DNA from: Candidatus Woesearchaeota archaeon
GTDB taxonomy: Archaea > Nanobdellota > Nanobdellia > Pacearchaeales > UBA284
NCBI GenBank assembly: GCA_964599615.1
Contig: CAZRGF010000004.1
Coordinates: forward strand, 3,810-67,809
Reading direction: 5' to 3'
Length of the DNA: 64,000 bases
Part shown: piece after piece, positions 18,572-60,317 of the stretch
Position numbering within the stretch: the stretch's first letter is position 1
Layout: every line of letters begins with the position of its first letter
Made by a program: the position numbers and the translations under genes
The notes under the pieces: generated by a model
The model's input: only the letters and a program-made list of their open reading frames with translations
What the model was told of the DNA's origin: nothing
The model's database searches: none

Positions 18572-18627
18572 CCTTATAGCTGGTTGCATGCAACCAAATT
18601 TTGTTTGTTTTGCGCTTTGCTTTTCAT
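18572..18627. repeat. hairpin repeat family B copy (cttatagctgg-hairpin-ccaaa...gcgctttgcttttcat)
   Basis: aligns with 41910-41966, 44926-44990 and 60252-60317 (reverse complement). Confidence 0.6.
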
Positions 18628-18642
18628 TTATTTTTCTTATCA

Positions 18643-19053
18643 TCACGCTAATCTTTTAATTATTTTTTTGCCGTCAACATTCCAGTATTCAACATTCCTG
18701 TTTTCTTGAGTTTCTTGGAATTCAGGGATAAGGTCTTGAGCAACAGGAATTTCTATTGTCTCAAAATTTTCCAAGTCCATAACACTTGCTGTTCCTTTGA
18801 ATTTGTCAAAACTCAAAAGTTGTGCCCTTCTTTTTTCAATCATCGGAACTTCATATCTTTCAGAACCTGGAACCGCGACAATCCTTTTCTTGTTATCAAC
18901 TATCCCAATTGCTTCAATTCTGCACTTGCTTGCGCCATGTTTCCCACTTTTGCTTATATCAATTGATTTTACAGAGCATGCAACACCATCTATAGGAATA
19001 GTATTTCCTACTTTTACATTACTTGCATCAATCCAATTTCCCATGTTAACCAA
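18643..19053 (-). CDS. eif5a: translation initiation factor 5A (aIF-5A)
   Basis: hypusine-loop motif SKSGKHGASKC; 136 aa. Confidence 0.85.
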   Translation of the reverse strand: MVNMGNWIDASNVKVGNTIPIDGVACSVKSIDISKSGKHGASKCRIEAIGIVDNKKRIVAVPGSERYEVPMIEKRRAQLLSFDKFKGTASVMDLENFETIEIPVAQDLIPEFQETQENRNVEYWNVDGKKIIKRLA

Positions 19054-19070
19054 AGAAAAATTTAATTTTT

Positions 19071-19133
19071 AAACCTTTCTGTAAAGAAAGGTTTACCTCT
19101 TTCCGAGGTTTCTTTCAGAAAGCTCGTTTAAAA
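19071..19133. repeat. 63-bp multi-hairpin element C copy 1 (18 nt upstream of aIF-5A start, minus orientation)
   Basis: exact reverse complement of 24167..24230. Confidence 0.7.
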
Positions 19134-19139
19134 CTTCGC

Positions 19140-19495
19140 TTTTTGAGATGATGTTTTACTTTCCATCAATTGGGTTAGAAATTCAAGCAATGTTTCTTTA
19201 TCAACATTAAAATCTATTAAAGCCTCACTGCATGTTTTAATTGGTGAACTTACAACAAGGTTCCGTGGGTTTCCAATATCTATAACTAAACAATCTGCTC
19301 TATCCTTTTCTGGAGCTGAAATTATCCTCCTCCTATAACCTGGTAATGCTAAATTAACAGCAGCACTATCATGTTCAGAGGTGAAGCCTAAAAATCCCCT
19401 CTTCTAAAACCATGTAAACAATTAGCAAGGTTATCTACAGTAACATAAGTTTCGATCCTATTATCAATACCTGTTTCATAAATTATAACTTTCAT
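19140..19495 (-). pseudogene. frameshifted or unannotated gene of unknown function (about 118 aa if the two frames are joined)
   Basis: ATG at 19495; frame 1 runs 35 codons (MKVIIYETGIDNRIETYV...) and overlaps frame 2 (KRGFLGFTSEHDSAAVNLALPGYRRRIISAPEKDRADCLVIDIGNPRNLVV...) around a T5/G4 homopolymer. Confidence 0.35.
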
Positions 19496-19496
19496 C

Positions 19497-19934
19497 TTAG
19501 AAATTCTTTCGTATATTGTCTTTTATCTCTTTAATGTCTCTTTTTTTCAATTTCTGTCTTGTTCTTTTCTCAAGTTTTGGAAAAACGATGCTTGCCCTAG
19601 GTTTAGGCACTGGTATTGAGTTAGAAGAAGTTATTGGTTTTCTTTGAGCGATTTCCTTCATGATTCTTTCAACTTCCAAAATCGCTTTATCTCTCGCTTC
19701 TTTGCTTTGGACTTTTTCAACTTTTTTAGGAGAAATTTCTTTTAAAACTCCCTCTAGTAATTGGATTTTCAATTCTTGCTCATAGAGTTTCTTTGTTAAA
19801 ATTCCCAAAGCAGTCCATAATTGTGCATTTGCTGGTTTTTCTGATTTTCTGTAAGCTGGAAAGAACGTAGTCTTCTTAATCAAATCATCGACATATTGCG
19901 CAAGTTCTTTATCAAGTTCTTTTCTCCATTCCAT
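19497..19934 (-). CDS. hypothetical protein
   Basis: 145 aa, K/E-rich ORF. Confidence 0.4.
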   Translation of the reverse strand: MEWRKELDKELAQYVDDLIKKTTFFPAYRKSEKPANAQLWTALGILTKKLYEQELKIQLLEGVLKEISPKKVEKVQSKEARDKAILEVERIMKEIAQRKPITSSNSIPVPKPRASIVFPKLEKRTRQKLKKRDIKEIKDNIRKNF

Positions 19935-19939
19935 TTTTT

Positions 19940-20452
19940 CTATTTTTCAAATATTAATTGAACTATTCCTGTTATTGGTGTTTTTTCTCCCTTAATATCA
20001 GTTTCACCATAAAAACCGATTGATGGTGAATACATTGTGGGTTCAAATATAAAATTAGGATTCCTTATAGGTTGAAGACTTCTTGGGTCATCCTTAAATG
20101 TAACATAAATCCGGTTTACCATAAATCCAAGATGATAACCTTTTCCCACAATTCTTAAAAGTTTTGCTTCCAGTTCATATTCTGCTTTTTCTTTAGGGTC
20201 AGTGCTTGGTTTCCTAGAGTTTTCAATATATCTTTTTGTGCAAAAACCATAAACCATTTCATTCACTCCTGGAACATTGATGGTAAGGTAATCAGCGTCA
20301 CTACGTGGTTTAACTGTAATCTGAACTACCTTATGATTTTTTACTAATCTTTGAATATCTGGAAAAACCGCATTTATTGGGTCTAACTTCTCTTTTCGAG
20401 CTTTTGCAACTTTTCCATGTAATTCAAGTAAAGCTTTGTCTAATGAGGTCAT
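19940..20452 (-). CDS. hypothetical protein
   Basis: 170 aa ORF in tight head-to-tail arrangement with the upstream gene. Confidence 0.4.
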   Translation of the reverse strand: MTSLDKALLELHGKVAKARKEKLDPINAVFPDIQRLVKNHKVVQITVKPRSDADYLTINVPGVNEMVYGFCTKRYIENSRKPSTDPKEKAEYELEAKLLRIVGKGYHLGFMVNRIYVTFKDDPRSLQPIRNPNFIFEPTMYSPSIGFYGETDIKGEKTPITGIVQLIFEK

Positions 20453-20552
20453 TTTTTCTATTTTTACAAATCTTTCGAGATATTTAAACCTTTCTTATGT
20501 ATTAACTAAAAAAAGACAATAATATTTAAAAAGCCCAAGGAAATAACAAAAA

Positions 20553-21083: not shown

Positions 21084-21085
21084 AA

Positions 21086-22345: not shown

Positions 22346-22384
22346 TACTTTCAAACATCTTATGCATAGAAAGAAGGTAAAAGC

Positions 22385-24123: not shown

Positions 24124-24166
24124 GGATATCACAGGTAGGATTCTTTAAATTCCATAGTCCAAACAT

Positions 24167-24230
24167 TTAAACGAGCTTTCTGAAAGAAACCTCGGAAAGA
24201 GGTAAACCTTTCTTTACAGAAAGGTTTAAA
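24167..24230. repeat. multi-hairpin element C copy 2 (24 nt upstream of the secE start, plus orientation)
   Basis: reverse complement of 19071..19133; internal hairpins cctc-ggaaa-gagg and aacctttc-tttaca-gaaaggtt. Confidence 0.7.
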
Positions 24231-24253
24231 AAACACTTTCTTATTAATTTATC

Positions 24254-24439
24254 ATGAATGTCTTAGTCAATACTAAACAATTTGTAGCCAAATGCACGAG
24301 AGTGTTTAAAGTAGCTAGAAAACCAACAAAACAAGAATTAAAGCAAGTTTCAAAAATTTCTGCTCTTGGATTGTTGATTATCGGTCTTTTAGGCTTTGCA
24401 ATAAGCATATTATTTACATTTCTCTGGGGCGTGATATAA
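24254..24439 (+). CDS. secE: protein translocase subunit SecE (Sec61 gamma)
   Basis: 61 aa with one C-terminal TM; conserved position immediately upstream of spt5/nusG. Confidence 0.6.
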   Translation: MNVLVNTKQFVAKCTRVFKVARKPTKQELKQVSKISALGLLIIGLLGFAISILFTFLWGVI

Positions 24440-24440: not shown

Positions 24441-24938
24441 ATGATATTTGTAGTAAAAGTCATAACAAACAAAGAAGATCAAGCAGCTGAATTGATTGCT
24501 AATAAAGTTGAGAAGAAAAAACTGGAAGTCTTCTCAATCATCCGACCACATGGTTTGAGAGGCTATATTCTTATTGAATCCCAGGATTATGAAACAGCAC
24601 AGCAAGCTGCTTTGAATGTGCCCTATGTCAAAGGAGTTATTTTCAAGAATCTCGACTACAAAGAAGTTGAAAATGTTGTTGAACCAGCTGCAACAACAAT
24701 CAATATTGAGAAAGGCGATGTAGTAGAGATTTTATCAGAACCATTCAAAAGAGAAAAAGCAAAAGTAGTCAGAGTTGATAAAACAAAAGAAGAAGTTGTT
24801 GTCGAATTATTAGAAGCAGCTGTTCCAATTCCAATTACAGTAAAGTTGGATAATGTAAAAGTCATCAGAAGGACAAAAGAAGAGCAGGAAGAGGAAGAAG
24901 CTAAAGCAAAAGACGAAGACGATTGGGAAAACTTATAA
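24441..24938 (+). CDS. spt5: transcription elongation factor Spt5 (NusG) with acidic tail
   Basis: NGN domain followed by KOW motif (IEKGDVVEILSEPFKREKAKVVRVDK). Confidence 0.8.
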   Translation: MIFVVKVITNKEDQAAELIANKVEKKKLEVFSIIRPHGLRGYILIESQDYETAQQAALNVPYVKGVIFKNLDYKEVENVVEPAATTINIEKGDVVEILSEPFKREKAKVVRVDKTKEEVVVELLEAAVPIPITVKLDNVKVIRRTKEEQEEEEAKAKDEDDWENL

Positions 24939-24964
24939 GTCTCTTATTCTTCTTAATTAATTCT

Positions 24965-25012
24965 AAAAGCGAAGCGCAGTTTCTAAATTTTAAAGGTTTG
25001 GCTTTTGTAAAA
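24965..25012. repeat. repeat family B copy (aaaagcgaagcgcagtttctaaattttaaaggtttgg)
   Basis: matches the reverse complement of 44940..44990 and aligns with 60252..60300. Confidence 0.6.
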
Positions 25013-25101
25013 TCTGTTAGTATGTGTAATATTTTTGGTTTAACTTATAACCCTAGTCTTACAGAATATGTTTTTTGAACACAAAAAATCTACAGGTTTT
25101 T

Positions 25102-25803
25102 TTATTGTTCAAATAAAACATAGTAAGTCGCAACTATTAAGATAGTAGCAAGAACTGAAATAACAATTGTTGCTAATAATCCATAAGATAAAGTTAAAAG
25201 AAACATTAATCCACTCAAGAAAAAGACAAACACCGCCCAGATTTTAGAGCCCATAAAAACCTTAAGCCCTTGCCCAATTGGGACCATTGCCAAAAAAGCA
25301 AGCAGCATAGGATATATCGCCAAGTCATTCAACCCCGCAATTCTCAAAATAATTCCCAAAAGTATTGAAGCAATTGGACCTGCGACAGCAATTTTAGCGA
25401 CATCTAGTTCATCCAAATCATACCATCTTTTCTTTATTCTCGAACTTTTTATGTCTACATCAAAATTCAAGACAGCTGACCATACTACTTTTCCTGCTGA
25501 GACTAAAAAGAATAACAAAGGCAAGACAATCCAAAGAGGAAAGCCCCATTTCAATCTAAACCTGTCATCAAACCAATACTGTCTGAAAGAAAGCCATTTT
25601 ATCTTGATTCTGCAATCTAAAAAATGAGCCATAATCTTTTCTCCAAGAATAAAAACAAATAACATTACTAAAGAAAACGCGCACATCAAGAGTACTTGGC
25701 TCCAGTCAATATAAAGCAAAGGCCACGCGACTTTTATTGATAAGACAAATCCTAAGAAAATTGCTGAAATAATCCAAATCATAACTTCATCAAAGTCTAG
25801 CAT
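25102..25803 (-). CDS. polytopic membrane protein of unknown function
   Basis: 233 aa, 6–7 TM helices; no HExxH or GxGD motif found. Confidence 0.4.
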   Translation of the reverse strand: MLDFDEVMIWIISAIFLGFVLSIKVAWPLLYIDWSQVLLMCAFSLVMLFVFILGEKIMAHFLDCRIKIKWLSFRQYWFDDRFRLKWGFPLWIVLPLLFFLVSAGKVVWSAVLNFDVDIKSSRIKKRWYDLDELDVAKIAVAGPIASILLGIILRIAGLNDLAIYPMLLAFLAMVPIGQGLKVFMGSKIWAVFVFFLSGLMFLLTLSYGLLATIVISVLATILIVATYYVLFEQ

Positions 25804-36381: not shown

Positions 36382-36852
36382 CTAAATCATAATCAAAATC
36401 AAGAAAATACAGGCTAAAGAAAAAATCAAGAAGATTATTGCTTCAGAAAGACTATGGGTCTTGATTTTCCCTTTGATTACAAAGTCCAAAGGCCAGAACC
36501 ATTTTATTCCTGCCTTTGTCAGAGAATCTAAAAATAGATGCAAGAAATAAAACAAGAAGAAAATTCCTGCGAATACTATACTTTTTGAGAATAAAAAAAC
36601 AAGAAGAGAAAAAATCAATGCAAATAACAAACTATGGAATTCTTCCCTATGGACTGTGAAAGCATGTATAAAATTACTTACAGGTTTTGTTTTATTGCTT
36701 ATGAAACTTCCTGCAATATCGATATCAGGTAAACAAGTCGCTAAAAAGAACAACAATAAGAACCACCAATTAAATGAAAAGCCAAAAGATTTTAGATTTA
36801 TCAATAATAAAAATGCAAACAAGTTGAAAACAAAGTGAGTTCTTAGGAGCAT
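36382..36852 (-). CDS. membrane protein (possible DUF457/YdjM-like metal-dependent hydrolase)
   Basis: 156 aa multi-TM with conserved His/Asp positions. Confidence 0.3.
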   Translation of the reverse strand: MLLRTHFVFNLFAFLLLINLKSFGFSFNWWFLLLFFLATCLPDIDIAGSFISNKTKPVSNFIHAFTVHREEFHSLLFALIFSLLVFLFSKSIVFAGIFFLFYFLHLFLDSLTKAGIKWFWPLDFVIKGKIKTHSLSEAIIFLIFSLACIFLILIMI

Positions 36853-36904
36853 TTTAAACTATGTATAATTCTTCATCTCTTTAGTTAATAAATATGTACT
36901 CCCG

Positions 36905-36947
36905 AAAAGCAAAGCGTAGTGATAAAATGTAATTAAAAAGATTTGGT
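36905..36947. repeat. repeat family B partial copy (gaaaagcaaagcgtagtg...aaaaagatttgg)
   Basis: aligns with 60252..60300. Confidence 0.45.
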
Positions 36948-37018
36948 CGTGGTTACTATGGTGTATAAGTTTTATCACAAAATGGCATATGCCCGCCAAT
37001 TAGCAAACTCAGCTTAGT

Positions 37019-37990
37019 TCAAGCCTTAGAATATAGCTTGATAACATCATCTACAGAAATTTTTTCAACATCATTTATGATGAACTCATCTCTGTTGAAA
37101 AGTACATTTTTTCTTGTTCTTCCTAAGAACAAGAATTCTTCTCCTAGAAGTTCTTCTCTCTTCTCAAGGATGATGTTGGGGTCATCTAGCTGTGATTCAT
37201 TCTCCAAATTGAATATCTTCAGGATAAGTTCATTAAAAGCAGTTGCCCTTATATTCTCCGAGCCATCATCTAAAGTGACATTCAATATAGCTCTTTTTCT
37301 CGGCATAACTGCCCCATGTTTGGGACAAACCGCTTTGTCCCCTTCAAAAGTAGCTTTCATATTGCATTCAGGGCATACATAGAAAAAAGAAATATTGAAC
37401 ATCTGCAAGATATTCGCTCTTACATTGACTTGCTCATTTGTTTTAACATCCTTGATTTTTTTTACAATGGGACTCTCTTTTTTTGTGACAACTACCTGCA
37501 TTTCAATCTGGCTTGGAATCAGTTCAGAAAAAGAATTTAGATGAATCTCTTTGTTTGCTGTTCCCCTTATGTCTGCATTTTTTATCTCAATAACCGAACC
37601 TACCTTGATTGTCCCATTTTTTACTAAAGATATATGATTAGTGTCCCACAAGACAACTCGTACATTCGAAGTTTCGTCAGCTATTGCGAAAGAGACCACT
37701 TCAGCATCCTGTTGCTGTCTTTTGAACTGCCGGACCATGGGCTCTTCAATGACCTTGCCAATAACAGAGATTTTTTTCATTCCAATCATCAAATCCAGGA
37801 TTTTTAATGTTTGTTTTTCAAATGTAACACCAAGTTCAGCAGCTACTATCTGCGCTGCCCCCTCATCACTGATTAAATCAGAGAATTTAGCTTTTTTAGC
37901 GCCAATTCTTCTCACTACCTCTTCTTTATCCAGTCCAGATGATTTTGAAATCCGATCAACTAGCTGTTCATATGAAGCTTTAATCATCAA
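37019..37990 (-). CDS. rpa: replication protein A (RPA-like ssDNA-binding protein) with C-terminal zinc ribbon
   Basis: N-terminal RPA-type helical domain, OB-fold-sized repeats, CPECN...CPKHG zinc ribbon. Confidence 0.65.
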   Translation of the reverse strand: MMIKASYEQLVDRISKSSGLDKEEVVRRIGAKKAKFSDLISDEGAAQIVAAELGVTFEKQTLKILDLMIGMKKISVIGKVIEEPMVRQFKRQQQDAEVVSFAIADETSNVRVVLWDTNHISLVKNGTIKVGSVIEIKNADIRGTANKEIHLNSFSELIPSQIEMQVVVTKKESPIVKKIKDVKTNEQVNVRANILQMFNISFFYVCPECNMKATFEGDKAVCPKHGAVMPRKRAILNVTLDDGSENIRATAFNELILKIFNLENESQLDDPNIILEKREELLGEEFLFLGRTRKNVLFNRDEFIINDVEKISVDDVIKLYSKA

Positions 37991-38122
37991 CTAAAAATCC
38001 TAACCTGATTTTTAAACTTTATTGCTCTATAAAACATATAATCTATATTGAAAAAATCTTGCTGTCACAGTAGAATAGGGCTATAATCCTTGTTAAATTT
38101 GATACGTCTGTATGTGCAATAA

Positions 38123-38272
38123 ACTTGACTTTGCCAGAGATAAGTTTAATAACATGATCCTGATTTTTAGTTGGATTTTCTTTGGGTTTTTGAAATCCTA
38201 AAAAGATTTCTTATAAAAACAATTGCTACTAGTCATTATACATACATATATAAGAATTTGGCGAAGTCAGGT
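38123..38272. mobile_element. MITE-like element family A copy
   Basis: 5' acttgactttgccagagataagt ... 3' ttggcgaagtcaggt. Confidence 0.55.
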
Positions 38273-38353
38273 GCATGGACTTTCTAAAAAATATTTTGTT
38301 AATTTAAACAATTGCTTTAAAGAAGATAAGGAATACAACCCGATAGATTATAA

Positions 38354-39115
38354 TCATCTTTTTTCAATTGCAAATATCCATCTTATTGGTTCAACACCTG
38401 CTGGAACTAAAACTTTTCTATTGGTCAAAGAATAGACCAGATAATTGCTTTTTTCTTCAGTTTTGTCTAAATTCCAGAATTCGCTCGTTAATTTACAATT
38501 ATTCTTGCATACACCAAATTTCTCAAAGATTTCATTGATTTCGGTGATTCTGGTTTTTTCATCCACCTGGATTGAATCCTTTAACTTAAATTTGTAATTT
38601 ATAGAATAACTAAAAAACTTGTTTTTTCTAGATGAATTCAAATTAATCTCGCTGGTTTGGCATTTTAAAACATCTAAATTATTTTCTTTCTCAATATTGC
38701 AGGAAACTTCTATTTTCTGACCATTCAAAGGATAATCCCTTAGATAGTCCTTGATATAATCCGCGGTTCTGTCTTCAAGAATTATCTTAATAAAATCGGG
38801 GTTAGGCTTGCAGTTATTATCTAAAATGAATATGTCTTCAGAAGTCAATCTACAATCAATGACATTCTTGTCAATAAAACTATAACCAGCGATTTCCTTC
38901 AAAGCGCTATCAAAACCCAAACTCATTGAATCTGAAAAGTAAGACTCGAGATTTTTGGAATCAATATCTTGAAGTTCTTCAGCCCCAATACTTGCTTCAA
39001 TTCTTTGGTTAGCAATCGTAAAAAACCAGACCATCAGCCCGAATAGAAGAAAAGTCATCAAAGCTAACATCCTCCCAAAACCTATTCCATGTTTATCTGA
39101 CTTATATCTTATCAT
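38354..39115 (-). CDS. membrane-anchored hypothetical protein (last gene of the pilus-like array)
   Basis: single N-terminal TM followed by extracellular-type domain. Confidence 0.4.
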   Translation of the reverse strand: MIRYKSDKHGIGFGRMLALMTFLLFGLMVWFFTIANQRIEASIGAEELQDIDSKNLESYFSDSMSLGFDSALKEIAGYSFIDKNVIDCRLTSEDIFILDNNCKPNPDFIKIILEDRTADYIKDYLRDYPLNGQKIEVSCNIEKENNLDVLKCQTSEINLNSSRKNKFFSYSINYKFKLKDSIQVDEKTRITEINEIFEKFGVCKNNCKLTSEFWNLDKTEEKSNYLVYSLTNRKVLVPAGVEPIRWIFAIEKR

Positions 39116-39576
39116 TTTGAATACCTTATTTTAATTGCAATTAATCCATCAGCTGGAACAAAAAAACAAAATTCTTCTGGATTATTTTCAATTGGGCAAT
39201 TCCCCCTAGAATTTTCGTAAAAAATTTCCGAACCACATTTTTTATTCTCTTCAGAACAGATTACATCGATTTCTTGTTCTATCCTCTCTTCTGTCCCCTG
39301 AATCCGGGATCTTAATCTATCACTGAAACTAATCCCATTTTCTTTTTCTTGCATCAATGAAGATAGCATGAAATTTATCTTATCATGAATAACCAGGGAA
39401 TCGATTTTTTCTGCCCTTACTTTGTCTACACTTTTGTATAGCACTACTGAGAATAAGATAAGCAGGAACAATATGAAGATGATAACGATGAATGAAGGAA
39501 AATCTTCTATTACCTCACCAACTTGTGCCTTTTTACTTGACATTTTTATCATTTTTATCAATAGCGATGAAAACAT
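39112..39576 (-). CDS. pilin-like protein with class-III-type signal (KKAQ-V...)
   Basis: basic residues, A-Q, then ~22-residue hydrophobic segment. Confidence 0.4.
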   Translation of the reverse strand: MFSSLLIKMIKMSSKKAQVGEVIEDFPSFIVIIFILFLLILFSVVLYKSVDKVRAEKIDSLVIHDKINFMLSSLMQEKENGISFSDRLRSRIQGTEERIEQEIDVICSEENKKCGSEIFYENSRGNCPIENNPEEFCFFVPADGLIAIKIRYSK

Positions 39577-40000
39577 TTATTCTTTCTAGCTTGTTATTAT
39601 AAAAAACACTGTAACTTTTGGAAAAACAAGAAGGTAAATAAGTCCCTTGAACATTGCCTTCTTTTGCTTTGCAATATGTCCATAACTCGGTTTTTCCGAT
39701 TGTGAAGTTCTTCTCTTCACTAGGAAGTTGGAGTTTCATCAGCAAGAAAATATTTTTTTCATCAATGTAAAGACAGTTTTTTATTGTTTCTTGGTTAAAA
39801 TCATTTAGTTCCAAGATACCATTCCCAGTTAAACAGTCAACTGATTTTTCTGCAAGAGTTGCTGCTTCAATCTGCCTTATGTCATATGGTGTTGAGAACC
39901 TGAACCATACCACCCCAACAAAGACCCCGATAATCAATATTATCATTATAAACCTGTATACAAAAATCACCGAATATTCTGTTTGTGCTCTTTTGTTCAT
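39533..40000 (-). CDS. pilin-like protein with class-III-type signal (MNKRAQ-T...)
   Basis: same K-[KR]-A-Q signal subtype. Confidence 0.4.
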   Translation of the reverse strand: MNKRAQTEYSVIFVYRFIMIILIIGVFVGVVWFRFSTPYDIRQIEAATLAEKSVDCLTGNGILELNDFNQETIKNCLYIDEKNIFLLMKLQLPSEEKNFTIGKTELWTYCKAKEGNVQGTYLPSCFSKSYSVFYNNKLERINVFIAIDKNDKNVK

Positions 40001-40018
40001 TTAATAAATGGGGCTTTC

Positions 40019-40092
40019 CATCCTCCAACTTTAAGTGTTTGGTATAAGCATAACTCTAATAAACATATAGCAACTGCGCTGACGCTTTTCAT
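40019..40092. repeat. repeat family B-related element (catcctccaactttaagt ... tagcaactgcgctgacgcttttcat)
   Basis: same two end-blocks as 3126-3143 plus 3297-3321, here uninterrupted. Confidence 0.5.
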
Positions 40093-40126
40093 TAATGTGT
40101 TTTTCATGATATAGACGTTTTGAGTT

Positions 40127-40474
40127 TTATTTTTCTTTTATTTCTATTAAGGTGTTTTTGCCTTCTTTTTGGATTTCCAGAGTTGCGTTATAACAAGGAT
40201 AGTAATAACCGATATCAATAGAATCTTTCTTAATTAAGAAACCAATATCTTTTTTCTCGATTATTCCAGGGTAGGTAACATTGATTACAGTTCCTGGCTC
40301 TGCCCCTAAACTGACTAAACAGAGTTGTTTTGCAAGAATTTGTTTTTTTGCCAAATCACCAGTAGCATTATTAGCTGAAAAGAAAAGCAGAACAGCAAAC
40401 AACATCCCTACAAATATTAGGGTTACTATTGTCTGAAGAGCTAGACTTTCTCCTCCTTTTTTTGATTTACTCAT
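40127..40474 (-). CDS. pilin-like protein (MSKSKKGG-ESLALQTIVTLIF...)
   Basis: K-K-G-G followed by hydrophobic helix; 115 aa. Confidence 0.45.
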   Translation of the reverse strand: MSKSKKGGESLALQTIVTLIFVGMLFAVLLFFSANNATGDLAKKQILAKQLCLVSLGAEPGTVINVTYPGIIEKKDIGFLIKKDSIDIGYYYPCYNATLEIQKEGKNTLIEIKEK

Positions 40475-40605
40475 TTCTTATACCTCTTTCAGATTTAACA
40501 GATAATATGACTTAATAAATTTTATTAGAAAACATTGATTATTACATCAGTATGTGTAAGGCATTATTTCTTAATTTTTCAGAAAAGCAGAGTGCAGTTA
40601 TTAGG

Positions 40606-40745
40606 TAACTTGATTTCGCTGGAGATAAGTGTAAATTATTTAGATTTTATTTTTGATTCTTGTTTTCGAAGAATTTTTGAAAAAGTTTAGAAGACTAGGG
40701 GCATAATATCCTGTAACATAATTCGCAGTGGCGAAGTCAAGTAGG
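40606..40745. mobile_element. MITE-like element family A copy
   Basis: 5' aacttgatttcgctggagataagtgtaaa ... 3' gtggcgaagtcaagt; both ends flanked by taggtaactt. Confidence 0.55.
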
Positions 40746-40799
40746 TAACTTAATTTATTAAGATTAGATTTCAACTTACAGGGAGATAAACTTTAAGGA

Positions 40800-41735
40800 T
40801 TATGGGATGCTCTCTATATTCTGGCAAGTTTTAGTGATTTCGCTTTCATCTAATGAAAGCAAGAAAACACCAGCACAACCCTTCCTGTTTCCATCACAAT
40901 GAACTGCTGCAGCATGTGTACTTGTCCAAAATGTAGTTATTTGCCCAGCAGTTATCGCAGCAAGAGCTGCAACACCTATCCAAATTGAAGCCGTCCCCAC
41001 AGTTGATAACGCTCCAGCACCTTCAACCCCCATAGCACCCATGGCTCCAAGAGGGCCAACTACTGATTTGGTTAATCCTGCTCCTCCAAAGACCAGTGCT
41101 CCCACCATAGCACCTTCTCTTTTCAATGCACTTCCGAGATCATCTCCCTTTATCATCATAAAAACAACAGCTAAATCTTTATCTGTTTTCGAAGGTTCTG
41201 CATTTACTTTTTCTTCTAATCCCCCCTGTCCTCCGGTAAAGTATTCCATGTAAGTGATATTTTTGATAGGAACCTTGGTATCAGCAAGATAATCCATAAG
41301 ATATATTGATTGGGGGTTTTCCTTTAATTTTTCATCAAATTTTATTGTTGAACAAATAAGACAATTTGCTTTTGAAGTTCCAAACAATCCAATTTCTCTC
41401 CATGCGCTTTCAGAAAAAAAATCTAAAGGATTTCCTTCAGAATCACTGACCATCCACCAACAGTCATACATCGCATTTGCAACTGTTCTTTCAATAGTCA
41501 CCTGGTCCCTGGTTTTGATTTCTATATTCTCGGTTTTGCATTTTAATGGGACTAAGGACTGGGTTGGTTGAATCCCCATAATAGACGCACTTCTTAGGAC
41601 TATAGAATTATGGCAGGCATCTTTATCAGGACTGATTTTGATATTGTTCATAACAATAAAAAGGACAGCCCCTGCAAGAATCACTATGATTAAAGAGATT
41701 ATAGTTGTCTGCGTTAAAGTTCCTCTTTTATTCAT
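40800..41735 (-). CDS. large pilin-like/adhesin-like protein (start placed at MNKRG-TLTQTTIISLII...)
   Basis: class-III-like N-terminus, Cys-containing ectodomain, Gly/Ala-rich C-terminal hydrophobic segment; the upstream in-frame extension to 41834 looks unlikely to be coding. Confidence 0.45.
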   Translation of the reverse strand: MNKRGTLTQTTIISLIIVILAGAVLFIVMNNIKISPDKDACHNSIVLRSASIMGIQPTQSLVPLKCKTENIEIKTRDQVTIERTVANAMYDCWWMVSDSEGNPLDFFSESAWREIGLFGTSKANCLICSTIKFDEKLKENPQSIYLMDYLADTKVPIKNITYMEYFTGGQGGLEEKVNAEPSKTDKDLAVVFMMIKGDDLGSALKREGAMVGALVFGGAGLTKSVVGPLGAMGAMGVEGAGALSTVGTASIWIGVAALAAITAGQITTFWTSTHAAAVHCDGNRKGCAGVFLLSLDESEITKTCQNIESIP

Positions 41736-41909
41736 TTTTAATATTCCTTTTATGATTTCCAAACTTATAATACTTTTGCTGTTCTTAATATAGCATATAA
41801 AATACCAAAGATTATTGCTGCTGCTCCGATCCACAAAATTATTTTTATGATCGTTTCGGGTATTTTATCCATGTTTTTATTATCTCTTTATCAATATTTT
41901 TTTATGATA

Positions 41910-41966
41910 AACTTATAGATGGCTTTTGTCAGCCAAATCTTTTGTTTAGTAACTATGCTTTCGCTT
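41910..41966. repeat. repeat family B copy (cttatagatgg-cttttgtcagcc-aaatcttttg...gctttcgctttt)
   Basis: aligns with 18572-18627; different but self-complementary hairpin stem. Confidence 0.5.
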
Positions 41967-41980
41967 TTAGTATTATCTAT

Positions 41981-43126
41981 TTAAGTTTGAGCAGCCTGTT
42001 TATTCTTTAAATCTTCTGCTTTGATGTCATTAACGATAACTAAAGGGCCGAGCCATAAATTAGCTTTTTCAGGCAAACAGTTTGTTCCAGATATTCTTGC
42101 TTTTCCTGCTCCTACATAAAGGTCAATATGCTGGCCTTGGATTGCTCCCCCACGATCTTCAGCAAGATAATATTTCTTATTCCATTTTTCACACTCTTCT
42201 TTGCAAGTGCTTTGCTCACAGTCAAATTCCAGATAAACCACACTTGCTCCACTTGAAGAACTTGGGATAACCCCTGGATCAACAGCAATTGTTCTTCCAG
42301 GAGTTGGGTCTGTCCCTAGACTTGTTGTTCCAAACTCACAAGCCGAACATCCTAGAAAAGGTGGACTTGTGTCTTTAGTCTCTTTTATGGTGCTATACGA
42401 ATAGATTTCCCCATCAGTGCCCAATCCAGAACCTTCACATTTTACAGTCTCATAAAATTGTTTGTCATCTCCTAATTGGCAATAATAAAGTCCATCTCCC
42501 CCTGTTTTTGAATTAGGGTTTTTCCATAATTGAAAATCACCCTCATAAGGCGTATAGTATCTAGTTACTTGAAATTCTCCCAAACTCTTCCAGGTGCTAT
42601 CTTTTTGATATTTTCCAGCTGATTCAGAACTGGCAATCTGCTGATTTTCTAGGTTCATAATTTTTTCTTTTACATCATAGACATCGCCATTATCTGTAAC
42701 AAAAAATTTCTTAAATACAGTGATTGGGAGCAGGAAAAATTTATTGTCGGACATAAATGGTTTTTTTAATTCTCTGCATATTGCAGATTTACATTCTTTT
42801 TTGCATATACAAACAGCATACTTGTAAGCAAAAGAACTGGGCTTAGTGAATCTATCATATTTATTAACTGAAGTATCAAAAGTCACGATTGTCCAGCCAG
42901 TAGGGACATAAAAATAAACTGCCTCTGAATCTCCTGGTTCCAAGCCAGATAATGTTTGATAAAGTCTGTCTAGAGTCCCTTTTGCTTGTTGTTCATCTTG
43001 TTTTCCGAATAACATATCATAAAAAATCCCTACTAACGCAATAACCAGAATAATTCCCATAACAGCCAAAATAATCTTTATGATCTGGCTGCTCATCATA
43101 TTCAAACCCGCTTTTTTGTTTAACAT
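41981..43126 (-). CDS. large Cys-rich pilin-like/secreted protein (start placed at MLNKKAG-LNMMSSQIIKIILAV...)
   Basis: class-III-like N-terminus followed by ~350 aa Cys-rich domain. Confidence 0.4.
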   Translation of the reverse strand: MLNKKAGLNMMSSQIIKIILAVMGIILVIALVGIFYDMLFGKQDEQQAKGTLDRLYQTLSGLEPGDSEAVYFYVPTGWTIVTFDTSVNKYDRFTKPSSFAYKYAVCICKKECKSAICRELKKPFMSDNKFFLLPITVFKKFFVTDNGDVYDVKEKIMNLENQQIASSESAGKYQKDSTWKSLGEFQVTRYYTPYEGDFQLWKNPNSKTGGDGLYYCQLGDDKQFYETVKCEGSGLGTDGEIYSYSTIKETKDTSPPFLGCSACEFGTTSLGTDPTPGRTIAVDPGVIPSSSSGASVVYLEFDCEQSTCKEECEKWNKKYYLAEDRGGAIQGQHIDLYVGAGKARISGTNCLPEKANLWLGPLVIVNDIKAEDLKNKQAAQT

Positions 43127-43281
43127 CTTAAACATTAGAAAAAGAACAATATTATATTTAAATCTTCTCAATTAAGAATTTCCTATCTGTGTTGTGATAG
43201 TTCTCCTAATTATTTCTTGGATTTATCCTGAAAGTCGGAATCAATATGGTAGATTATAACACATATAGAAGTGATTTAAGA

Positions 43282-43482
43282 TTATTTCCCAGAAGCACTT
43301 GAATTAAATATTCCTAAAGCCATCTTAAGTTTGTCCATAATTACATTTCCAAAATTTCCTAAAGCTCCTGTTGCAATCAATATCATCATAACCAGGACAA
43401 GAAGAACAAGAATCAAGACTATGATTGTGGACATTGATAATTCAATACCACCTTTCTTTGACATTTTAAGGTTAGGGTACAT
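43282..43482 (-). CDS. short pilin (major pilin candidate; MSKKGG-IELSMSTIIVLIL...)
   Basis: about 60 aa, K-K-G-G then hydrophobic helix. Confidence 0.45.
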   Translation of the reverse strand: MYPNLKMSKKGGIELSMSTIIVLILVLLVLVMMILIATGALGNFGNVIMDKLKMALGIFNSSASGK

Positions 43483-43870
43483 AATTTGGATTTTTCTCTG
43501 GGTCCTTGCAATCTTCTTCGTTTTTTAGCGTTACTGTTTTTCCAGCTGCATCCTGGTAAGTATAAACTGCCTTATACCTCACATCTGGCAGATTGTAGCA
43601 ATAGAACAATTCTTCTGTCTGCGTTTTAGAATTTCTTATAGCCACCTGTTCACCACAATATTGCTGCAAGGTGTAAAATTTTTCACATTTATCTTTAGCA
43701 GAAGACAAAACATCGCTCCCATAAACTCCCTGGATTCCAAGTATCTTTTCCCATAAACTTTTTAAGGTTCCAGAAAAGAACAAACCTAATATTACTAGCA
43801 CCATTATCGCTAGGACTAGAATAATGATTGTGGTTATGTTAATCTCTACCCCTTTTTTATTTTGCACCAT
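43472..43870 (-). CDS. pilin-like protein (MVQNKKG-VEINITTIIILVL...)
   Basis: class-III-like N-terminus; Cys-containing C-terminal domain. Confidence 0.45.
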   Translation of the reverse strand: MVQNKKGVEINITTIIILVLAIMVLVILGLFFSGTLKSLWEKILGIQGVYGSDVLSSAKDKCEKFYTLQQYCGEQVAIRNSKTQTEELFYCYNLPDVRYKAVYTYQDAAGKTVTLKNEEDCKDPEKNPNYVP

Positions 43871-43922
43871 TTTTTAATACTAATATAGATTTTTTTTCTT
43901 TTTAAAACTTTCTACTAATCAA

Positions 43923-44894
43923 TTAAACAAAAATGCATTTTTTATTATTTTCCTCTTTGATATCAATGACCATGTTGTCAGTGATTTCTCCATCTGGCCT
44001 AGAACCTTGGCACAGAACAATTGTTTTTTTCACTTCTTGGGGGATAATCAAAGTATCTTGTCCAGAATTAGATGTTTTCATTTGATTTACTTTCTCAGAA
44101 TCATATTCAAGCCATGCTTCTTGATTATTATAATGGATAATAAAACCAGCGGGGAGTTCAACTAATTTTTGCCCAGTTTCAGAATCAAGATCATTGAAAA
44201 AAGCTATTGCATCTGGTCTTCCTTCCTGACATTTTGGCATTTTATCAATTAATTTTCTGATTTGTTCTAAGCTGGCATCTGGGGGAACATTTTTGCTTCC
44301 AATGAACGGTTTCTGGATAATATTTGGTTTATCAGGAACATTGGGATTATAAAAAGTCAAAATAAAGATTCCACTAGATTCTTTTAAAGCATAGTTCGAA
44401 ATAACATACCCCCTTGAGACTTCTTTTACTTTTGGAACTTTTTCAGAAAAAACAAGATTAAAAACAGCAGGCAGATCAACTTTATGAGAAAAAAGTCCGT
44501 CAGGACTTTCTTTTGCAGATAAGATCTTTAATGTAGGTTCTATTTCAAGACTTTTCAATTCTATTTTTTTGTCATATAACGTTAAATTAGATGCGCCATT
44601 ATCTACTTTAAGAACAGCATTTGTATGGAATACAGCTGGAAAATTTGGAAAAGTCTCACAAAAACAAGATTCATCTTTCATAGCTTGGCAGATATCCAGA
44701 TTTTCGACAAGAATATCAAAATTATCAATAATTTCTCCTTTTGTTTCAGGGTCTAGCTTTTCTCCCCCAAGGCCCTGAATCCAAGGCAAAATAGTTTTTG
44801 GGAAAAAAATAATTAATATTCCGATAAGCAAAACAATCATGATCACTGCAAAAATTGCATTTTTTGTTTCAGCTGAAATCTCTTTTTCACTCAT
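43923..44894 (-). CDS. membrane-anchored extracellular protein in the pilus-like array
   Basis: N-terminal TM (AIFAVIMIVLLIGILIIFF) then 290-aa domain. Confidence 0.4.
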   Translation of the reverse strand: MSEKEISAETKNAIFAVIMIVLLIGILIIFFPKTILPWIQGLGGEKLDPETKGEIIDNFDILVENLDICQAMKDESCFCETFPNFPAVFHTNAVLKVDNGASNLTLYDKKIELKSLEIEPTLKILSAKESPDGLFSHKVDLPAVFNLVFSEKVPKVKEVSRGYVISNYALKESSGIFILTFYNPNVPDKPNIIQKPFIGSKNVPPDASLEQIRKLIDKMPKCQEGRPDAIAFFNDLDSETGQKLVELPAGFIIHYNNQEAWLEYDSEKVNQMKTSNSGQDTLIIPQEVKKTIVLCQGSRPDGEITDNMVIDIKEENNKKCIFV

Positions 44895-44925
44895 GTTTTA
44901 AATTGTTTGGGGCAATAAGCTAATA

Positions 44926-44990
44926 CCCCTTATAGCTGGCTGTAACAGCAGCCAAACCTTTTATTTAGCAACTGCGCTTCGCTTTTCTCC
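44926..44990. repeat. repeat family B copy (ccccttatagctgg-ctgtaacagcagcc-aaacctttt...gcgcttcgcttttc)
   Basis: aligns with 18572-18627 and 41910-41966; hairpin stem shows a compensatory change. Confidence 0.6.
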
Positions 44991-45023
44991 TCCTTTTCGA
45001 ACTTATTTATAATCTTAATCATT

Positions 45024-50698: not shown

Positions 50699-50746
50699 AT
50701 CTATTTTAAGTTTATAAGTAATTATTACTTTTCTTAGTTCTCATTA

Positions 50747-50886
50747 ACTTGACTTTGCCATCTATAGGTTTAAGGGTAAATTATCTGGATTTGATTCTTG
50801 ATTTTTGTTTTCGAAGAAGTTTCTGAAAATTTAGAACTAACTGTACATAATCCATTGCAGCATAGCCCGCATTGGCAAAGTTAAAC
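50747..50886. mobile_element. MITE-like element family A copy (first of a tandem pair)
   Basis: 5' aacttgactttgccatctatagg ... 3' cccgcattggcaaagttaaac. Confidence 0.55.
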
Positions 50887-50892
50887 ATTCTT

Positions 50893-51027
50893 ACTTGACT
50901 TCGCCAGACATAAGTGTAAAATATTTTATTCTTAATGTTCGTAGTTTTTCTTTGAAGAAATCTTAAAGAAATCAAGAATCCCCTTGCAGAATTGACTATC
51001 AATTATCCCGCATTGGCGAAGTCAAGT
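50893..51027. mobile_element. MITE-like element family A copy (second of the tandem pair)
   Basis: 5' acttgacttcgccagacataagtgtaaa ... 3' cccgcattggcgaagtcaagt. Confidence 0.55.
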
Positions 51028-51079
51028 CAATAAGTGTTATGGGCATAACTTTATTCAGATACCGGGTAAAATTAGCAAA

Positions 51080-56934: not shown

Positions 56935-57023
56935 AATCTAAGAAGAAGTGCAATATATTCAAGTTATAGCAATCAATCTCAATCATCCTTAAGATTTAAA
57001 AACCCTGAAATGTAAACATTAAA

Positions 57024-57341: not shown

Positions 57342-57342
57342 A

Positions 57343-57543
57343 ATGGATTATCAATTAATAGCAAATTCAGTCAATAAGGTGGTAGATTATGCGTCACTAG
57401 CTACGGGAATTGCAGTTTGTGCTTTGTTCCCGTTTTATTTAGCCAACCAAAGAAAATTTAGAAGAGAATTTCAGAGAGATGTTAAACAATTCGGAGAGAG
57501 TATGGAAACACTAATTAAAAAAATTGAAATAAGCAACATATAG
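57343..57543 (+). CDS. small hypothetical protein
   Basis: 66 aa ORF between two ribosomal protein genes. Confidence 0.25.
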   Translation: MDYQLIANSVNKVVDYASLATGIAVCALFPFYLANQRKFRREFQRDVKQFGESMETLIKKIEISNI

Positions 57544-57548
57544 ATAAA

Positions 57549-58079: not shown

Positions 58080-58148
58080 GCAAGTTTACATTATGCAATA
58101 AAAGAGTATATATACTTTAAGTATCTTAAATAATAAAAGAGAAATAAA

Positions 58149-58481
58149 ATGAGAGGTAAACCCAAAGCAATAATCTTTTCGATAATTGTTTTACTTATAC
58201 TTCTAGTAAGTCTATTTATAATACTAATTTTTTTAGATAAAACCCCAGAAACTTCTTCCAATAAGGTGATTTATTATAGTGTTTCAAATAATTATTATAG
58301 GGATAATCCTAGATTTTATTCAGTTTATACTTATCCCTATTACTCCGAAATCAGTGACTATTACCATTATCACCACAGATACAAAGAAAATCCAGAACCA
58401 CTTCCCAGTTATATTCAAATTGAACCAGTTGCAATCCAAGCTCCGAATTATGCCCCAACAAATTTACATAACGCACATTAA
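58149..58481 (+). CDS. membrane-anchored Tyr/His-rich low-complexity protein
   Basis: N-terminal TM, then YYSVSNNYYRDNPRFYSVYTYPYYSEISDYYHYHHRYK. Confidence 0.3.
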   Translation: MRGKPKAIIFSIIVLLILLVSLFIILIFLDKTPETSSNKVIYYSVSNNYYRDNPRFYSVYTYPYYSEISDYYHYHHRYKENPEPLPSYIQIEPVAIQAPNYAPTNLHNAH

Positions 58482-58602
58482 TTCTTAAGAAAAAATTTGG
58501 ACTATTCTCTTCTAATTTTCAATTTTTTTAAGGATTCTTATAATATCCCTCTTCTCCACAAAATTTTAAAAGCCTCTTTCTCTCTCTTTTTATAACATTC
58601 GT

Positions 58603-58675
58603 GCCTCTATAGCTCAGTGGCTAGAGCATCTGTTTTGTAAACAGAGGGTCGCAGGTTCAAATCCTGCTAGAGGCT
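58603..58675 (+). tRNA. tRNA-Thr(UGU): tRNA-Thr (anticodon UGU)
   Basis: cloverleaf folded by hand: acceptor gcctcta/tagaggc, D-loop agtggcta, anticodon stem tctgt/acaga with loop tttgtaa, T-loop ttcaaat; no encoded CCA. Confidence 0.85.
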
Positions 58676-58731
58676 TTCTGTTTTAGTTCAAATCCTCCAA
58701 AGATTTAAATCCTTGAAGAGGTTATAAAAAA

Positions 58732-59301
58732 ATGAAAAAAATTGTGCTGACTTTGATAATTATCGGAATAATTATTCTCATTGGCATTTTATTATTCTAC
58801 TTTTTCGGAAGAGAAAGCCAAGGCAGTCATGAATGCAAGGGGGAGAATAATTGTGTTGCTTTAGGTGGTTGCCATCCCGGATGTTGGAACAAAAACAATT
58901 TACCCAGGGATTATATCTGGAATCAACAAATGTGTGGAATGAAGGCGCCAGAAAATTGTGGATGTATCGAAAATATATGCGTTGCAGATTATGGGTCTTA
59001 TGCTGCAAAATTACTTAGTTTTAGTGGTGGTTCTTTTGTTGAATCTGCAAGTTTTTATGAGGGTGAATTAACCATGGACATTACAAATAAAATGATGACC
59101 GGTGTCCCATATTCTGATTTAATGAATCAATCTTCTCATAAATCTGTTTTTGTTTGTACAACAAGTTGGTCTTGGGTAAAGGTTGGTTCTTGTTATGAGT
59201 TAAATGAGTTGGAGATTCAAAGAAATCAAGCAGAACACAAATACTCCATAGGGTTAAGTGGATGTTATATTGGTTCATTTAAAGAAATAAGTTGCACATA
59301 G
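58732..59301 (+). CDS. membrane-anchored Cys-rich extracellular protein
   Basis: signal anchor followed by 10+ Cys. Confidence 0.4.
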   Translation: MKKIVLTLIIIGIIILIGILLFYFFGRESQGSHECKGENNCVALGGCHPGCWNKNNLPRDYIWNQQMCGMKAPENCGCIENICVADYGSYAAKLLSFSGGSFVESASFYEGELTMDITNKMMTGVPYSDLMNQSSHKSVFVCTTSWSWVKVGSCYELNELEIQRNQAEHKYSIGLSGCYIGSFKEISCT

Positions 59302-59395
59302 TTAGAACAAATTCTGTAAAAACCACCCCTTTTTGTTCATACTTTGCTAGAGGCTTTTCCAAAACTCTTAAATACTATTTTTTCCTTAAATAAAG

Positions 59396-60202
59396 ATGGT
59401 AGCTGAAAAAAACAAAAAAGAAAATCTGGCTTTAGTTCTTTCAGGTGGCGGGGCTCGAGGAATGGCCCATATTGGAGTTTTAAAAGTTCTTGAAAAGAAT
59501 AATATTGTTCCCAACATAATTATCGGGACATCTGCAGGCGCTATGGTTGGCGGGATGTATGCTGCCGGAAAATTAGCAGATTTTGAAAAAATGTTAACAA
59601 GTAAAAGTCAAAAAGACATAAAAAAACTTGCTGCTTTTCGTCCCCATGAGGGGGGCTTGATTAATCCAGATAGGCTTGAAAAAGAATTGAGGAAGATAAT
59701 CGGAAATAAAAAAATAGAAGAACTAGACAAGAAATATTTCGCAACCGCAGTTGATTTACTAACTGGAAAAGAAGTTAGGATGGAGAGGGGGGATTTATGT
59801 CAAGCTATTCTGGCAAGCAGTTCAATTCCATTATTAGTACCTCCTGTTAAAAAAGAAGGGATGTTGCTTGTAGACGGGGGTTTACAAAATCCTTTAGCCA
59901 TAGATGACGGATTCGACGTAGCTAGAAAAGTTATTGCTGTGAGTATTGAACGAGATATTAAAGAGATGCCAAAAAAAGAAAAATATGGTTTTGTAGATAT
60001 TGCTGAAAGAACATTAACAATAATGCAATGCGACATCGTTGAAAATTCACTTAAGAAATATAAAGACAATTTAATTGTGTTGAGGCCAAATGTCAATATG
60101 GATACACTGGATTTTCATAAAGGAAAAGAAGCTATTGAAATAGGAGAAAAGGAAGCTGAGAAACACATAGAAGAGATAAAAAAACTTGTTCTTGCAGAAT
60201 AA
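59396..60202 (+). CDS. patatin-like phospholipase
   Basis: oxyanion motif GGGARG and GxSxG nucleophile (GTSAGA). Confidence 0.75.
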   Translation: MVAEKNKKENLALVLSGGGARGMAHIGVLKVLEKNNIVPNIIIGTSAGAMVGGMYAAGKLADFEKMLTSKSQKDIKKLAAFRPHEGGLINPDRLEKELRKIIGNKKIEELDKKYFATAVDLLTGKEVRMERGDLCQAILASSSIPLLVPPVKKEGMLLVDGGLQNPLAIDDGFDVARKVIAVSIERDIKEMPKKEKYGFVDIAERTLTIMQCDIVENSLKKYKDNLIVLRPNVNMDTLDFHKGKEAIEIGEKEAEKHIEEIKKLVLAE

Positions 60203-60251
60203 AGTAATTGTTTAGTTCTCAAGTTATTTAATTAAAAATCAGAGATTTCAT

Positions 60252-60317
60252 TAAAAGCGAAAGCGCAAATTTGTAACTTAAAAGGTTTGGTTGTCAACAA
60301 CCAGCTATAAGTGTAAA
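60252..60317. repeat. repeat family B copy fused to a family-A-like 5' end (…ggttgtcaacaaccagctataagtgtaaatag)
   Basis: aaaagcgaaagcgcaaatttgtaacttaaaaggtttgg + hairpin + ccagctataagtgtaaa. Confidence 0.55.

Follow-up and report, generated by a model that had tools for sequence, protein, structure and literature searches.

A 64-kb stretch of DNA from a Candidatus Woesearchaeota archaeon (G+C 33%), hereafter called the window, carries in its gene spacers a dispersed hairpin element of 52-63 nt, family B, and the question raised by this locus is what such an element is: a gene for a structured RNA, a signal acting on the transcripts of its host, or mobile DNA. The explanation that we favour, with roughly even confidence, is that B is a small non-autonomous dispersed repeat resembling the REP, ERIC and PATE elements, whose stem-loop and conserved boxes would be recognised by machinery encoded elsewhere.

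The strand of a B copy is defined here as the one that reads CTTATAG...GCTTTT. A covariance model was built from nine copies, namely the four intact ones of the window and five others (L002, L003 with two, L004 and L009) that came from four contigs of similar composition when the JGI metagenome collection was scanned for the pattern. L-numbers (L002-L069) denote the related metagenome contigs used for comparison; L002-L004 and L009 may be the window genome or a very close one, the demonstrably distinct lineages being L065-L069, L012-L019 and similar contigs. An initial annotation had described four full copies, which were found in their places with boundaries differing by a few bases and scores of 66-79 bits (E = 1e-12 to 4e-10), and two partial copies, which the model also recovered (Table 1). 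Moreover, the model added a window copy at 63655-63719 and four more in L003 and L004. The total is seven copies in 64 kb (four intact and three degenerate), about one per 9 kb, with at least nine further copies in L002, L003, L004 and L009 and three more in L066 and L069. The box CTTATAGMTGG occurs nine times at up to one mismatch, against 2.2 expected. On gene maps based on open reading frames (ORFs), every copy lies outside credible genes, as the initial annotation had proposed. The copies form a continuum from intact to decayed, and subfamilies distinguished by stem and linker recur between contigs at unrelated loci: the variant-stem subfamily of the 63661 copy is found again at L004:9553 and L066:20632, the TGTGC-subfamily copy of L066 being at an unrelated site. 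Downstream of the origin-associated oapC gene, a B copy and its flank are present as a tandem duplication of ~139 nt (L003:3375-3453 and 3514-3588), the second copy being already degenerate.

Table 1. Positions of family B copies, X-type relatives and family A units (window coordinates unless a contig is named; scores are from the covariance model)
Feature	Position (strand)	Score	Structure	Neighbours and flanks
B1, intact	18572-18627 (+)	65.8 bits, E = 4e-10	stem TGGTTG 18581-18586 / CAACCA 18591-18596	aIF5A (18643-19044, -) and L40e (18331-18504, -)
B2, intact	41911-41968 (+)	70.4 bits	stem TGGCT 41920-41924 / AGCCA 41931-41935	3D-domain gene (41981-43135, -) and small membrane ORF starting 41872 (-)
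B3, intact	44928-44988 (+)	69.7 bits	stem-loop 44937-44954 (TGGCTG taacag CAGCCA)	34 nt 5' of ATG of conserved 323-aa gene (43923-44894, -)
B4, intact	60253-60312 (-)	78.5 bits	stem-loop 60288-60303	patatin gene (59396-60202, +) and small ORF (60388, +); left flank TTTACA common to family A
B, degenerate	24965-25020 (-); model hit 24959-25030	37.9 bits, E = 1e-4	3' module and CCAAACCTTT box intact; CTTATAG box and stem decayed	between convergent genes Spt5 (24441-24938, +) and 25102-25803 (-)
B, degenerate, hairpin lost	36905-36970 (-); model hit 36899-36979	28.8 bits, E = 6e-3		RPA-like (37019-37990, -) and YdjM (36382-36852, -)
B, variant stem	63661-63710 (-)	26.1 bits, E = 0.02	TGTG cttaaa CACA	
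B remnant	43252-43269 (+)		18 nt, CTATAAG end only (TCTATATGTGTTATAATC on - strand)	
X	39998-40095 (+)		- strand ATGAAAAGCGTCAGCGCAGTTGCT...GTTGGAGG-ATGG-loop-CCAT-TTATTAA-ATG; 5' module and hairpin-then-box end common to B	the ATG is that of gene 39533-40000
X	3109-3325 (+)		interrupted by family A unit (~3144-3275); hairpin ATGGC-aaga-GCCAT 3116-3129; - strand: hairpin, then CTATAAG, then ATG	the ATG is that of gene 2167-3108
Family A unit	3144-3275			
Family A unit	14225-14362			
Family A unit	38121-38270			
Family A unit	40606-40745			
Family A unit	50745-50880			
Family A unit	50891-51030			
Family A unit	L069:1790-1900			

The element has the layout (A)CTTATAG-M-TGG, a stem-loop closing in CCA, AAYCTTT, 8-14 variable A/T-rich bases and (T)GCGCTTYGCTTTT(CA). 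What is fixed in the boxes (A)CTTATAGMTGG, CCAAAYCTTT and GCGCTTYGCTTTT(CA) is the sequence, and in the stem between them only the pairing. This main stem-loop lies 8 nt from one end of B, and at the opposite end there is just a 3-bp GCG/CGC mini-stem, whose loop has 3-4 nt. Stems of 4-7 bp fall into nine haplotypes in the 16 copies of the window and related contigs (TGGTTG, TGGTTT, TGGCTG, TGGCTT, TGGCT, TGGCA, TGTGC, TGTG and TGG), and the loops of copies with an intact stem (3-7 nt) are unrelated in sequence. The hairpins quoted in the initial annotation are as given there, and pairing is kept through all nine haplotypes: structure-aligned stems, one copy per haplotype, contain 28 nested pairs beyond the fixed TG/CA, as opposed to 3.2 on average and 13 at most in shuffles (n = 5000). 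On the model alignment 95% of cells are paired versus 87% in shuffles (0/500), and shifting the partner column destroys the pairing. Pairing rather than sequence is preserved in the stem.

It had been proposed that these compensatory substitutions indicate selection on structure. Compensatory change does preserve the pairing; however, covariation is confined to two of the six modelled pairs (C-G/U-A and G-C/U-A), the outer T-A, G-C and G-C pairs being nearly invariant. Moreover, such change alone is no proof of selection on an RNA, since the copies share ancestry and template switching can homogenise palindromes. The stems are of modest stability (-3.6 to -6.3 kcal/mol for DNA) and folds of the whole element are unexceptional (z = -2.3 to +0.6). 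Assignment of the strand by G-U pairs was dropped because the pairs of the main stem are all Watson-Crick and the signs given by the mini-stem conflict. A hairpin of unrelated sequence was noticed directly after the CTATAAG end at 18530-18572, 41875-41910 and 44900-44928 (e.g. AGGGTTAT..ATAACCCT, z = -3.7); such a variable third hairpin was considered as a part of B and rejected, being found at B1, B2, B3 and in L002 but not generally (mean z = -0.75).

The same spacers in related genomes also bear on what kind of sequence B is. Between aIF5A and L40e the window has 139 nt with B1, while its closest relative, L019 (88% aIF5A identity), has 40 nt without B; in L018 (84%) this spacer holds unrelated sequence, and four more relatives (74-77%) in the L012-L017 set also lack B. 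Downstream of the 3D-domain gene there are 108 nt with B2 in the window as opposed to ~12 nt in L065 (83% identity), and the gap between the RPA-like gene and YdjM, with its degenerate B, measures 166 nt in the window, 1 nt in L066 and 64 nt in L013 and L014. B is not present at the Spt5 spacer of the relatives examined. In general, operon spacers of 8-40 nt in the nearest relatives correspond to more than 100 nt with repeats in the window. The reverse situation is seen before the 3D-domain gene, where L066-68 (71% identity) have an intact B with stem TGGCTT/AAGCCA (L066:9783-9857, 53 bits) and the window has only the remnant at 43252. As judged from these comparisons, B appears to be gained, lost and decaying independently in related lineages, as dispersed repeat DNA does.

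The distribution of the family seems to be narrow. The full-element pattern was absent from the GTDB species representatives (185,579 genomes), the 3'-half pattern (CCAAAYCTTT...GCGCTTYGCTTTT) gave only chance hits in bacteria in public collections, and B was not found on IMG/VR viral contigs, where there were only weak, pattern-selected matches. The closest named relatives of the aIF5A protein of the window are Candidatus Pacearchaeota, and by these searches B appears confined to a single narrow set of Pacearchaeota-like DPANN archaea. When the literature was searched, no description of such repeats in Pacearchaeota or other DPANN archaea came to light.

A second property of B is that its orientation is tied to that of the genes around it. 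Among the 14 spacers that separate co-directional genes, 12 have the CTTATAG-first strand in antisense (binomial p ~0.013; a count of 10/12 gave p = 0.039), the exceptions being L004:814 and the hairpin-less 36905 copy. Within the window B is on the plus strand amid minus-strand genes (18.5, 41.9 and 44.9 kb) and on the minus strand where its neighbours, or at least the upstream one, are plus-strand genes (24.9, 60.2 and 63.7 kb); its orientation thus flips with local gene direction and follows transcription, not the replication arm. Runs of four or more T occur only on the CTTATAG-first strand, after both hairpins (stem-AAAYCTTTT and GCG-CTT-CGC-TTTT). The sense strand of tandem spacers is in general poorer in T-runs (80 vs 132), and the oligo-T terminator feature, a sense T-run just downstream of a gene, was seen only in convergent spacers and at the two exceptions. 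The genes flanking B elements (housekeeping genes such as aIF5A, L40e, GyrA and OapB are among them) are unrelated to each other, while the orientation of the elements is shared; paralogy of neighbouring genes as the source of the repeats was rejected, as the flanking genes show none. The usual promoter of this genome, AAAG(G/A)TTTATAAAT (consensus AAAGRTTTATAAAT, ~9 in the window), ends 20-22 nt 5' of the ATG, indicating that mRNAs are leaderless, and no canonical promoter was found between B1, B2 or B3 and their upstream genes.

B also has a longer relative, X, of ~95 nt, whose first ~25 nt are common to B and correspond to its 3' module in the CTTATAG-first orientation. In gene direction X reads (TCTATAWS, 16-19 nt) ATGAAAAGCGnnAGCGCAGTwGCT; TTA..GA.TT.TGCTT; CACTTAARGTYGGRGG; followed by 13-24 nt to the next ATG. 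Besides the two window copies, it was found in L003, L066 and L069 (two copies). All X copies with the downstream side available are oriented in agreement with the linkage of B to genes, and in L066 B and X carry the same lineage-specific 5' variant. B is the short, hairpin-bearing form of a wider B/X repeat family. X contains a possible micro-ORF (MKSvSAVAxxLxElCL); nevertheless, differences by codon position (64/57/85), together with a 3' part that is in two frames between copies, indicate that its conservation is mainly at the nucleotide level, and a search for homologues of the peptide found none. On the minus strand of the window X elements (3106-3135 and 39998-40027), GGAGG is followed by a hairpin (ATGGC-tctt-GCCAT and ATGG-aaagcc-CCAT) with the ATG exactly 7 nt on, so that folding of the hairpin would place the Shine-Dalgarno-like GGAGG at a normal distance from the start codon.

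The window carries another family, A, of ~135-nt units with 14-bp inverted ends (ACTTGACTTYGCCA / TGGCRAAGTCAAGT), in which a compensatory T/C-A/G change is seen between copies, and with 5-bp flanking direct repeats at two copies (TTCTA and TACCT). These inverted ends and direct repeats make family A similar to MITEs (transposable elements of miniature size with inverted repeats). At 50.7-51.0 kb two units form a tandem, and another unit has inserted into the X element at 3109-3325. The initial annotation had suggested modular recombination between families A and B. A modular relation is real, since A and some B copies (60311 and L004:814) have in common 17-20 nt, (T)TTACACTTATAGCTGG, adjoining the right end of A; the suggested fusion is this shared module and at most a putative recombination junction. 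The MITE-like character of A and its insertion into such elements, the status of B as a short form of X and the transcription-tied orientation are all additional to that annotation.

According to these data, the propagation of B could be explained as follows. The fixed boxes and the stem-loop, in single-stranded DNA or in RNA, would be recognised by a propagating machinery that, by analogy with REP/RAYT and IS200/IS605-derived elements, may be encoded elsewhere in the genome. Insertions would be tolerated between the stop codon of one gene and the start region of the next, and only in the orientation that puts no archaeal oligo-T termination signals into the operon transcript; the element would then be co-transcribed with its neighbours without ending their transcripts. 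Both this mechanism of mobility and the reason for the orientation bias are what we infer from the pattern. The presence of other small mobile DNA in the genome, that is, family A with its insertion into X, supports the view of B as a dispersed repeat. A protein-recognised DNA hairpin or a transposition-related structure, two of the possibilities raised initially, would fit the observations better than a small-RNA gene.

Several results weigh against this explanation. The 16 copies show no consistent flanking direct repeat, and hence no target-site duplication, and no target sequence is conserved; TAAAT at B1 and AGATAATA at B2 are candidate direct repeats that, if real, would make the unit ~90-100 nt long. 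In window ORFs of at least 100 aa and in the scanned ORFs of L003, L004 and L009, searches with Pfam, PHROGs and NCBIfam detected no gene for a transposase, HUH/RAYT, DDE or reverse transcriptase. The window organism occurs in ENA ERZ27248937 and ERZ27248961, JGI 3300028298 and SRR8437217. Its contigs from several metagenomes are all 100% identical to the window and give no sign of recent movement of B, and L002-L004 and L009, as they may be the window genome itself, do not count as independent lineages. Conservation of B is strongly block-wise and not uniform, which could equally reflect a function for the host. Finally, the site 5' of the 323-aa gene has B3 in the window and X in L066 and L069, and the fact that three lineages have one or the other of these elements there hints that it is retained and may have a function at least at this site. 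As to its ends, B has no terminal inverted repeats, ACTTATAG... and ...GCTTTTCA not being complementary, nor the complementary RYYYAAC / GTTRRRY core ends of integron attC sites, and its neighbours are housekeeping genes and not cassette arrays.

Functions for the host are not exclusive of B being a dispersed repeat, and four such proposals were considered. The first of them, which we regard as unlikely, is that B is an intercistronic RNA element, transcribed in the sense direction within polycistronic mRNAs, whose stem-loop acts as an exonuclease barrier or processing site and sets different levels for the upstream and downstream genes, as enterobacterial REP and ERIC do; copies would be kept for this effect, however they spread. 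The sense-linked orientation and the stem kept through compensatory change are as expected for such an element, as are the position of B, 5-50 nt past the upstream stop codon in strings of genes without internal canonical promoters, and the 323-aa gene site occupied in three lineages. However, the nearest relatives do without B in the same operon spacers, with genes only 8-40 nt apart, decayed copies are tolerated, the stems are short in folds that are unexceptional, and intact copies also lie between convergent genes (L003:3375).

Rather improbable, in our estimation, is a combination of function and spread, in which B/X is a transcription-coupled class of archaeal repeat: a small cassette spreading from one spacer to another in a streamlined DPANN genome and retained for its effect on transcripts. 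Under this proposal, B/X would stop transcripts that run backwards from symmetric TATA promoters or determine where intercistronic RNAs end. Its spread may pass through an intermediate of RNA or single-stranded nucleic acid, and such an intermediate would by itself account for the orientation being sense-linked.

The antisense strand has been considered in its own right. B could be a terminator or insulator that stops backward transcripts arising from the near-palindromic TATA promoter of the next gene and thereby shields the upstream gene; downstream of a convergent gene it would also be a terminator of the usual kind. The TATA box of this genome, TTTATAAA, is indeed a perfect palindrome with purine-rich flanks on both sides, the T-runs are confined to the appropriate strand, and where genes converge (24959; L003:3375 and 3514) they read in the sense direction of the facing gene; besides, a terminator scan flags two copies, and the Y of GCGCTTYGC preserves G-C or G-U pairing on the CTTATAG-first strand only. 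We nevertheless consider this function doubtful: the runs have just 4-5 T, L004:814 lacks a T-run after the main stem, relatives lack the element in the same spacers, and the X copy at 3300-3325 has the wobble on the opposite strand (GTG..CGC sense), in conflict with the strand deduced from the wobble in B.

Even more doubtful is that the elements form a propagated leader or promoter cassette reused 5' of unrelated genes, with a putative TATA-like box, a start near AAAAGCG and a leader ending at or near the next ATG, of which B would be the version without the Shine-Dalgarno part. This possibility resembles the 'putative mobile promoters' of bacteria and fits X better than B. X copies with the downstream side available are all in sense orientation and end in GTYGGRGG 13-24 nt before the ATG, with TCTATAWS 16-23 nt 5' of the X ATG; the next ATG is found 31-43 nt past CTATAAG in 6 of 10 B copies, and the 5' variant shared by B and X in L066 is in agreement with it. 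On the other hand, canonical promoters have their TATA box ~6 nt farther from the ATG than X has its box from the X ATG, no upstream box is conserved among B copies, and an intact B has no downstream gene in its orientation (L003:3375). CTATAAG as a general TATA box was rejected as well, since it is not enriched outside the elements (14 found vs ~15 expected) and the intergenic occurrences are the elements themselves.

An independent ~55-nt small-RNA gene, as the initial annotation had thought possible, or a gene for a micro-protein is highly improbable: despite a conserved stem with conserved flanks, AT-rich TATA-like stretches that are often no more than 20 nt upstream, on either strand, an ORF that in some copies runs from ATG-AAA-AGC to a TAA inside CTATAAG and the possible peptide common to X copies, no copy matched Rfam 15, whether with the gathering threshold or with E <= 5, no promoter lies at a fixed distance, stability is ordinary, the orthologous spacers of the nearest relatives lack the element, decayed remnants occur, and the codon-position differences of X are only weakly coding-like with its 3' part in two frames and its peptide search empty. 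B itself is non-coding, and a small peptide (e.g. MKSKAQNKQNLVACNQL followed by a stop) was rejected, as the lengths of copies differ by non-multiples of three and most frames hit stops after 7-8 codons.

Returning to B as a dispersed repeat, its properties can be compared with those of known families. The RAYT-mobilised REP/BIME/REPIN elements are, like B, short extragenic imperfect palindromes, present in many copies, intercistronic and lineage-specific, with a fixed short sequence beside a stem whose pairing matters, and effects on mRNA stability and termination have been proposed for them (PMC2817692, PMC3116915, PMC3733652). Unlike REP, B has no GTAG or CGTC head, CTTATAG-M preceding the stem and AAYC following it; it is a ~55-nt composite in which ~40 nt are conserved but not palindromic, forms no inverted doublets, is accompanied by no RAYT in the scanned ORFs, lives in a DPANN archaeal host and is oriented according to transcription. 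ERIC units are ~127-bp long palindromes with inverted ends, in contrast to the one short stem and 3-bp mini-stem of B. As in B, ERIC (IRU) and similar families of transcribed stem-loop repeats are located in transcribed spacers, their orientation in the mRNA matters and their stem-loops vary between copies (for bacterial stem-loop sequence families, see PMC2267715). PATEs, derived from IS200/IS605 and moved as single strands by TnpA, share with B the lack of inverted ends and duplications and a strand-specific behaviour, and have hairpins near their ends (PMC6006769). However, no TnpA or TnpB was found in the scanned ORFs, the flanks of B vary and contain no conserved target tetranucleotide, the orientation tracks local transcription and not the replication arm, and of its two 'hairpins' one has just 3 bp.

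MITEs (PMC11602168) are also small, non-coding, multi-copy, intergenic and variably present between relatives, and family A fits this class, whereas B lacks both inverted repeats at its ends and direct repeats at its flanks. Putative mobile promoters are homologous sequences found in a fixed orientation 5' of unrelated genes (Matus-Garcia et al. 2012, PMC3488235), a description that X fits best; B shows the homologous sequence in the same orientation before non-homologous downstream genes, its promoter activity being putative, but is also found where no gene follows. B acts most like the REP and ERIC-type repeats, yet it lacks the GTAG or CGTC head of REP (with no RAYT seen in the scanned ORFs), the inverted ends and duplications of MITEs, and the fixed target and replication-tied orientation of IS200/IS605 derivatives. 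It is an undescribed family among small stem-loop intergenic repeats, unusual in its transcription-linked orientation and its two-form (B/X) organisation.

The genomes of DPANN archaea are of ~1 Mb and are thought to be streamlined. A genome of this type nonetheless holds several small hairpin repeat families that expand its operon spacers. If B is selfish, small mobile DNA persists in such genomes without a visible transposase nearby, and its copies would be markers for strain typing and for dating insertions. If it acts on transcripts, these would be the first REP-like regulatory repeats in the group and would give a handle on termination and antisense control in uncultured organisms.

The ORFs of the window include aIF5A, L40e, L18e, L44e, S3Ae, Spt5, SecY, RadA, FtsZ, SRP54, FtsY and an STT3 oligosaccharyl transferase, and many others have no family assignment in Pfam, PHROGs or NCBIfam. 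It is amid such unassigned ORFs that the region 38000-45000 is dense in repeats (in order A, X, A, B, a remnant and B). A third hairpin family, with the nested structure GGATTTTG-[GTGTTC..GAACAC]-AACGTTGCAAAATCC, is present at 18240-18285 in the L40e-L18e spacer (z = -2.7 as DNA), which in L019, the closest relative, has only 8 nt; the same architecture with another inner stem is found at other spacers (L015:2890-2935, L012:10430-10470 and L066:11170-11225). Two sequences of 91 nt, at 19042-19132 and 24166-24256, are an inverted duplicate with 89% identity of a promoter region containing the palindrome TAAACCTTTCTTTACAGAAAGGTTTA; they lie upstream of aIF5A and of the SecE-Spt5 genes, and the aIF5A copy is kept in L019. 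Lastly, in L004 an ORF for a free-standing LAGLIDADG endonuclease (3287-4246) is located immediately 5' of gyrB.

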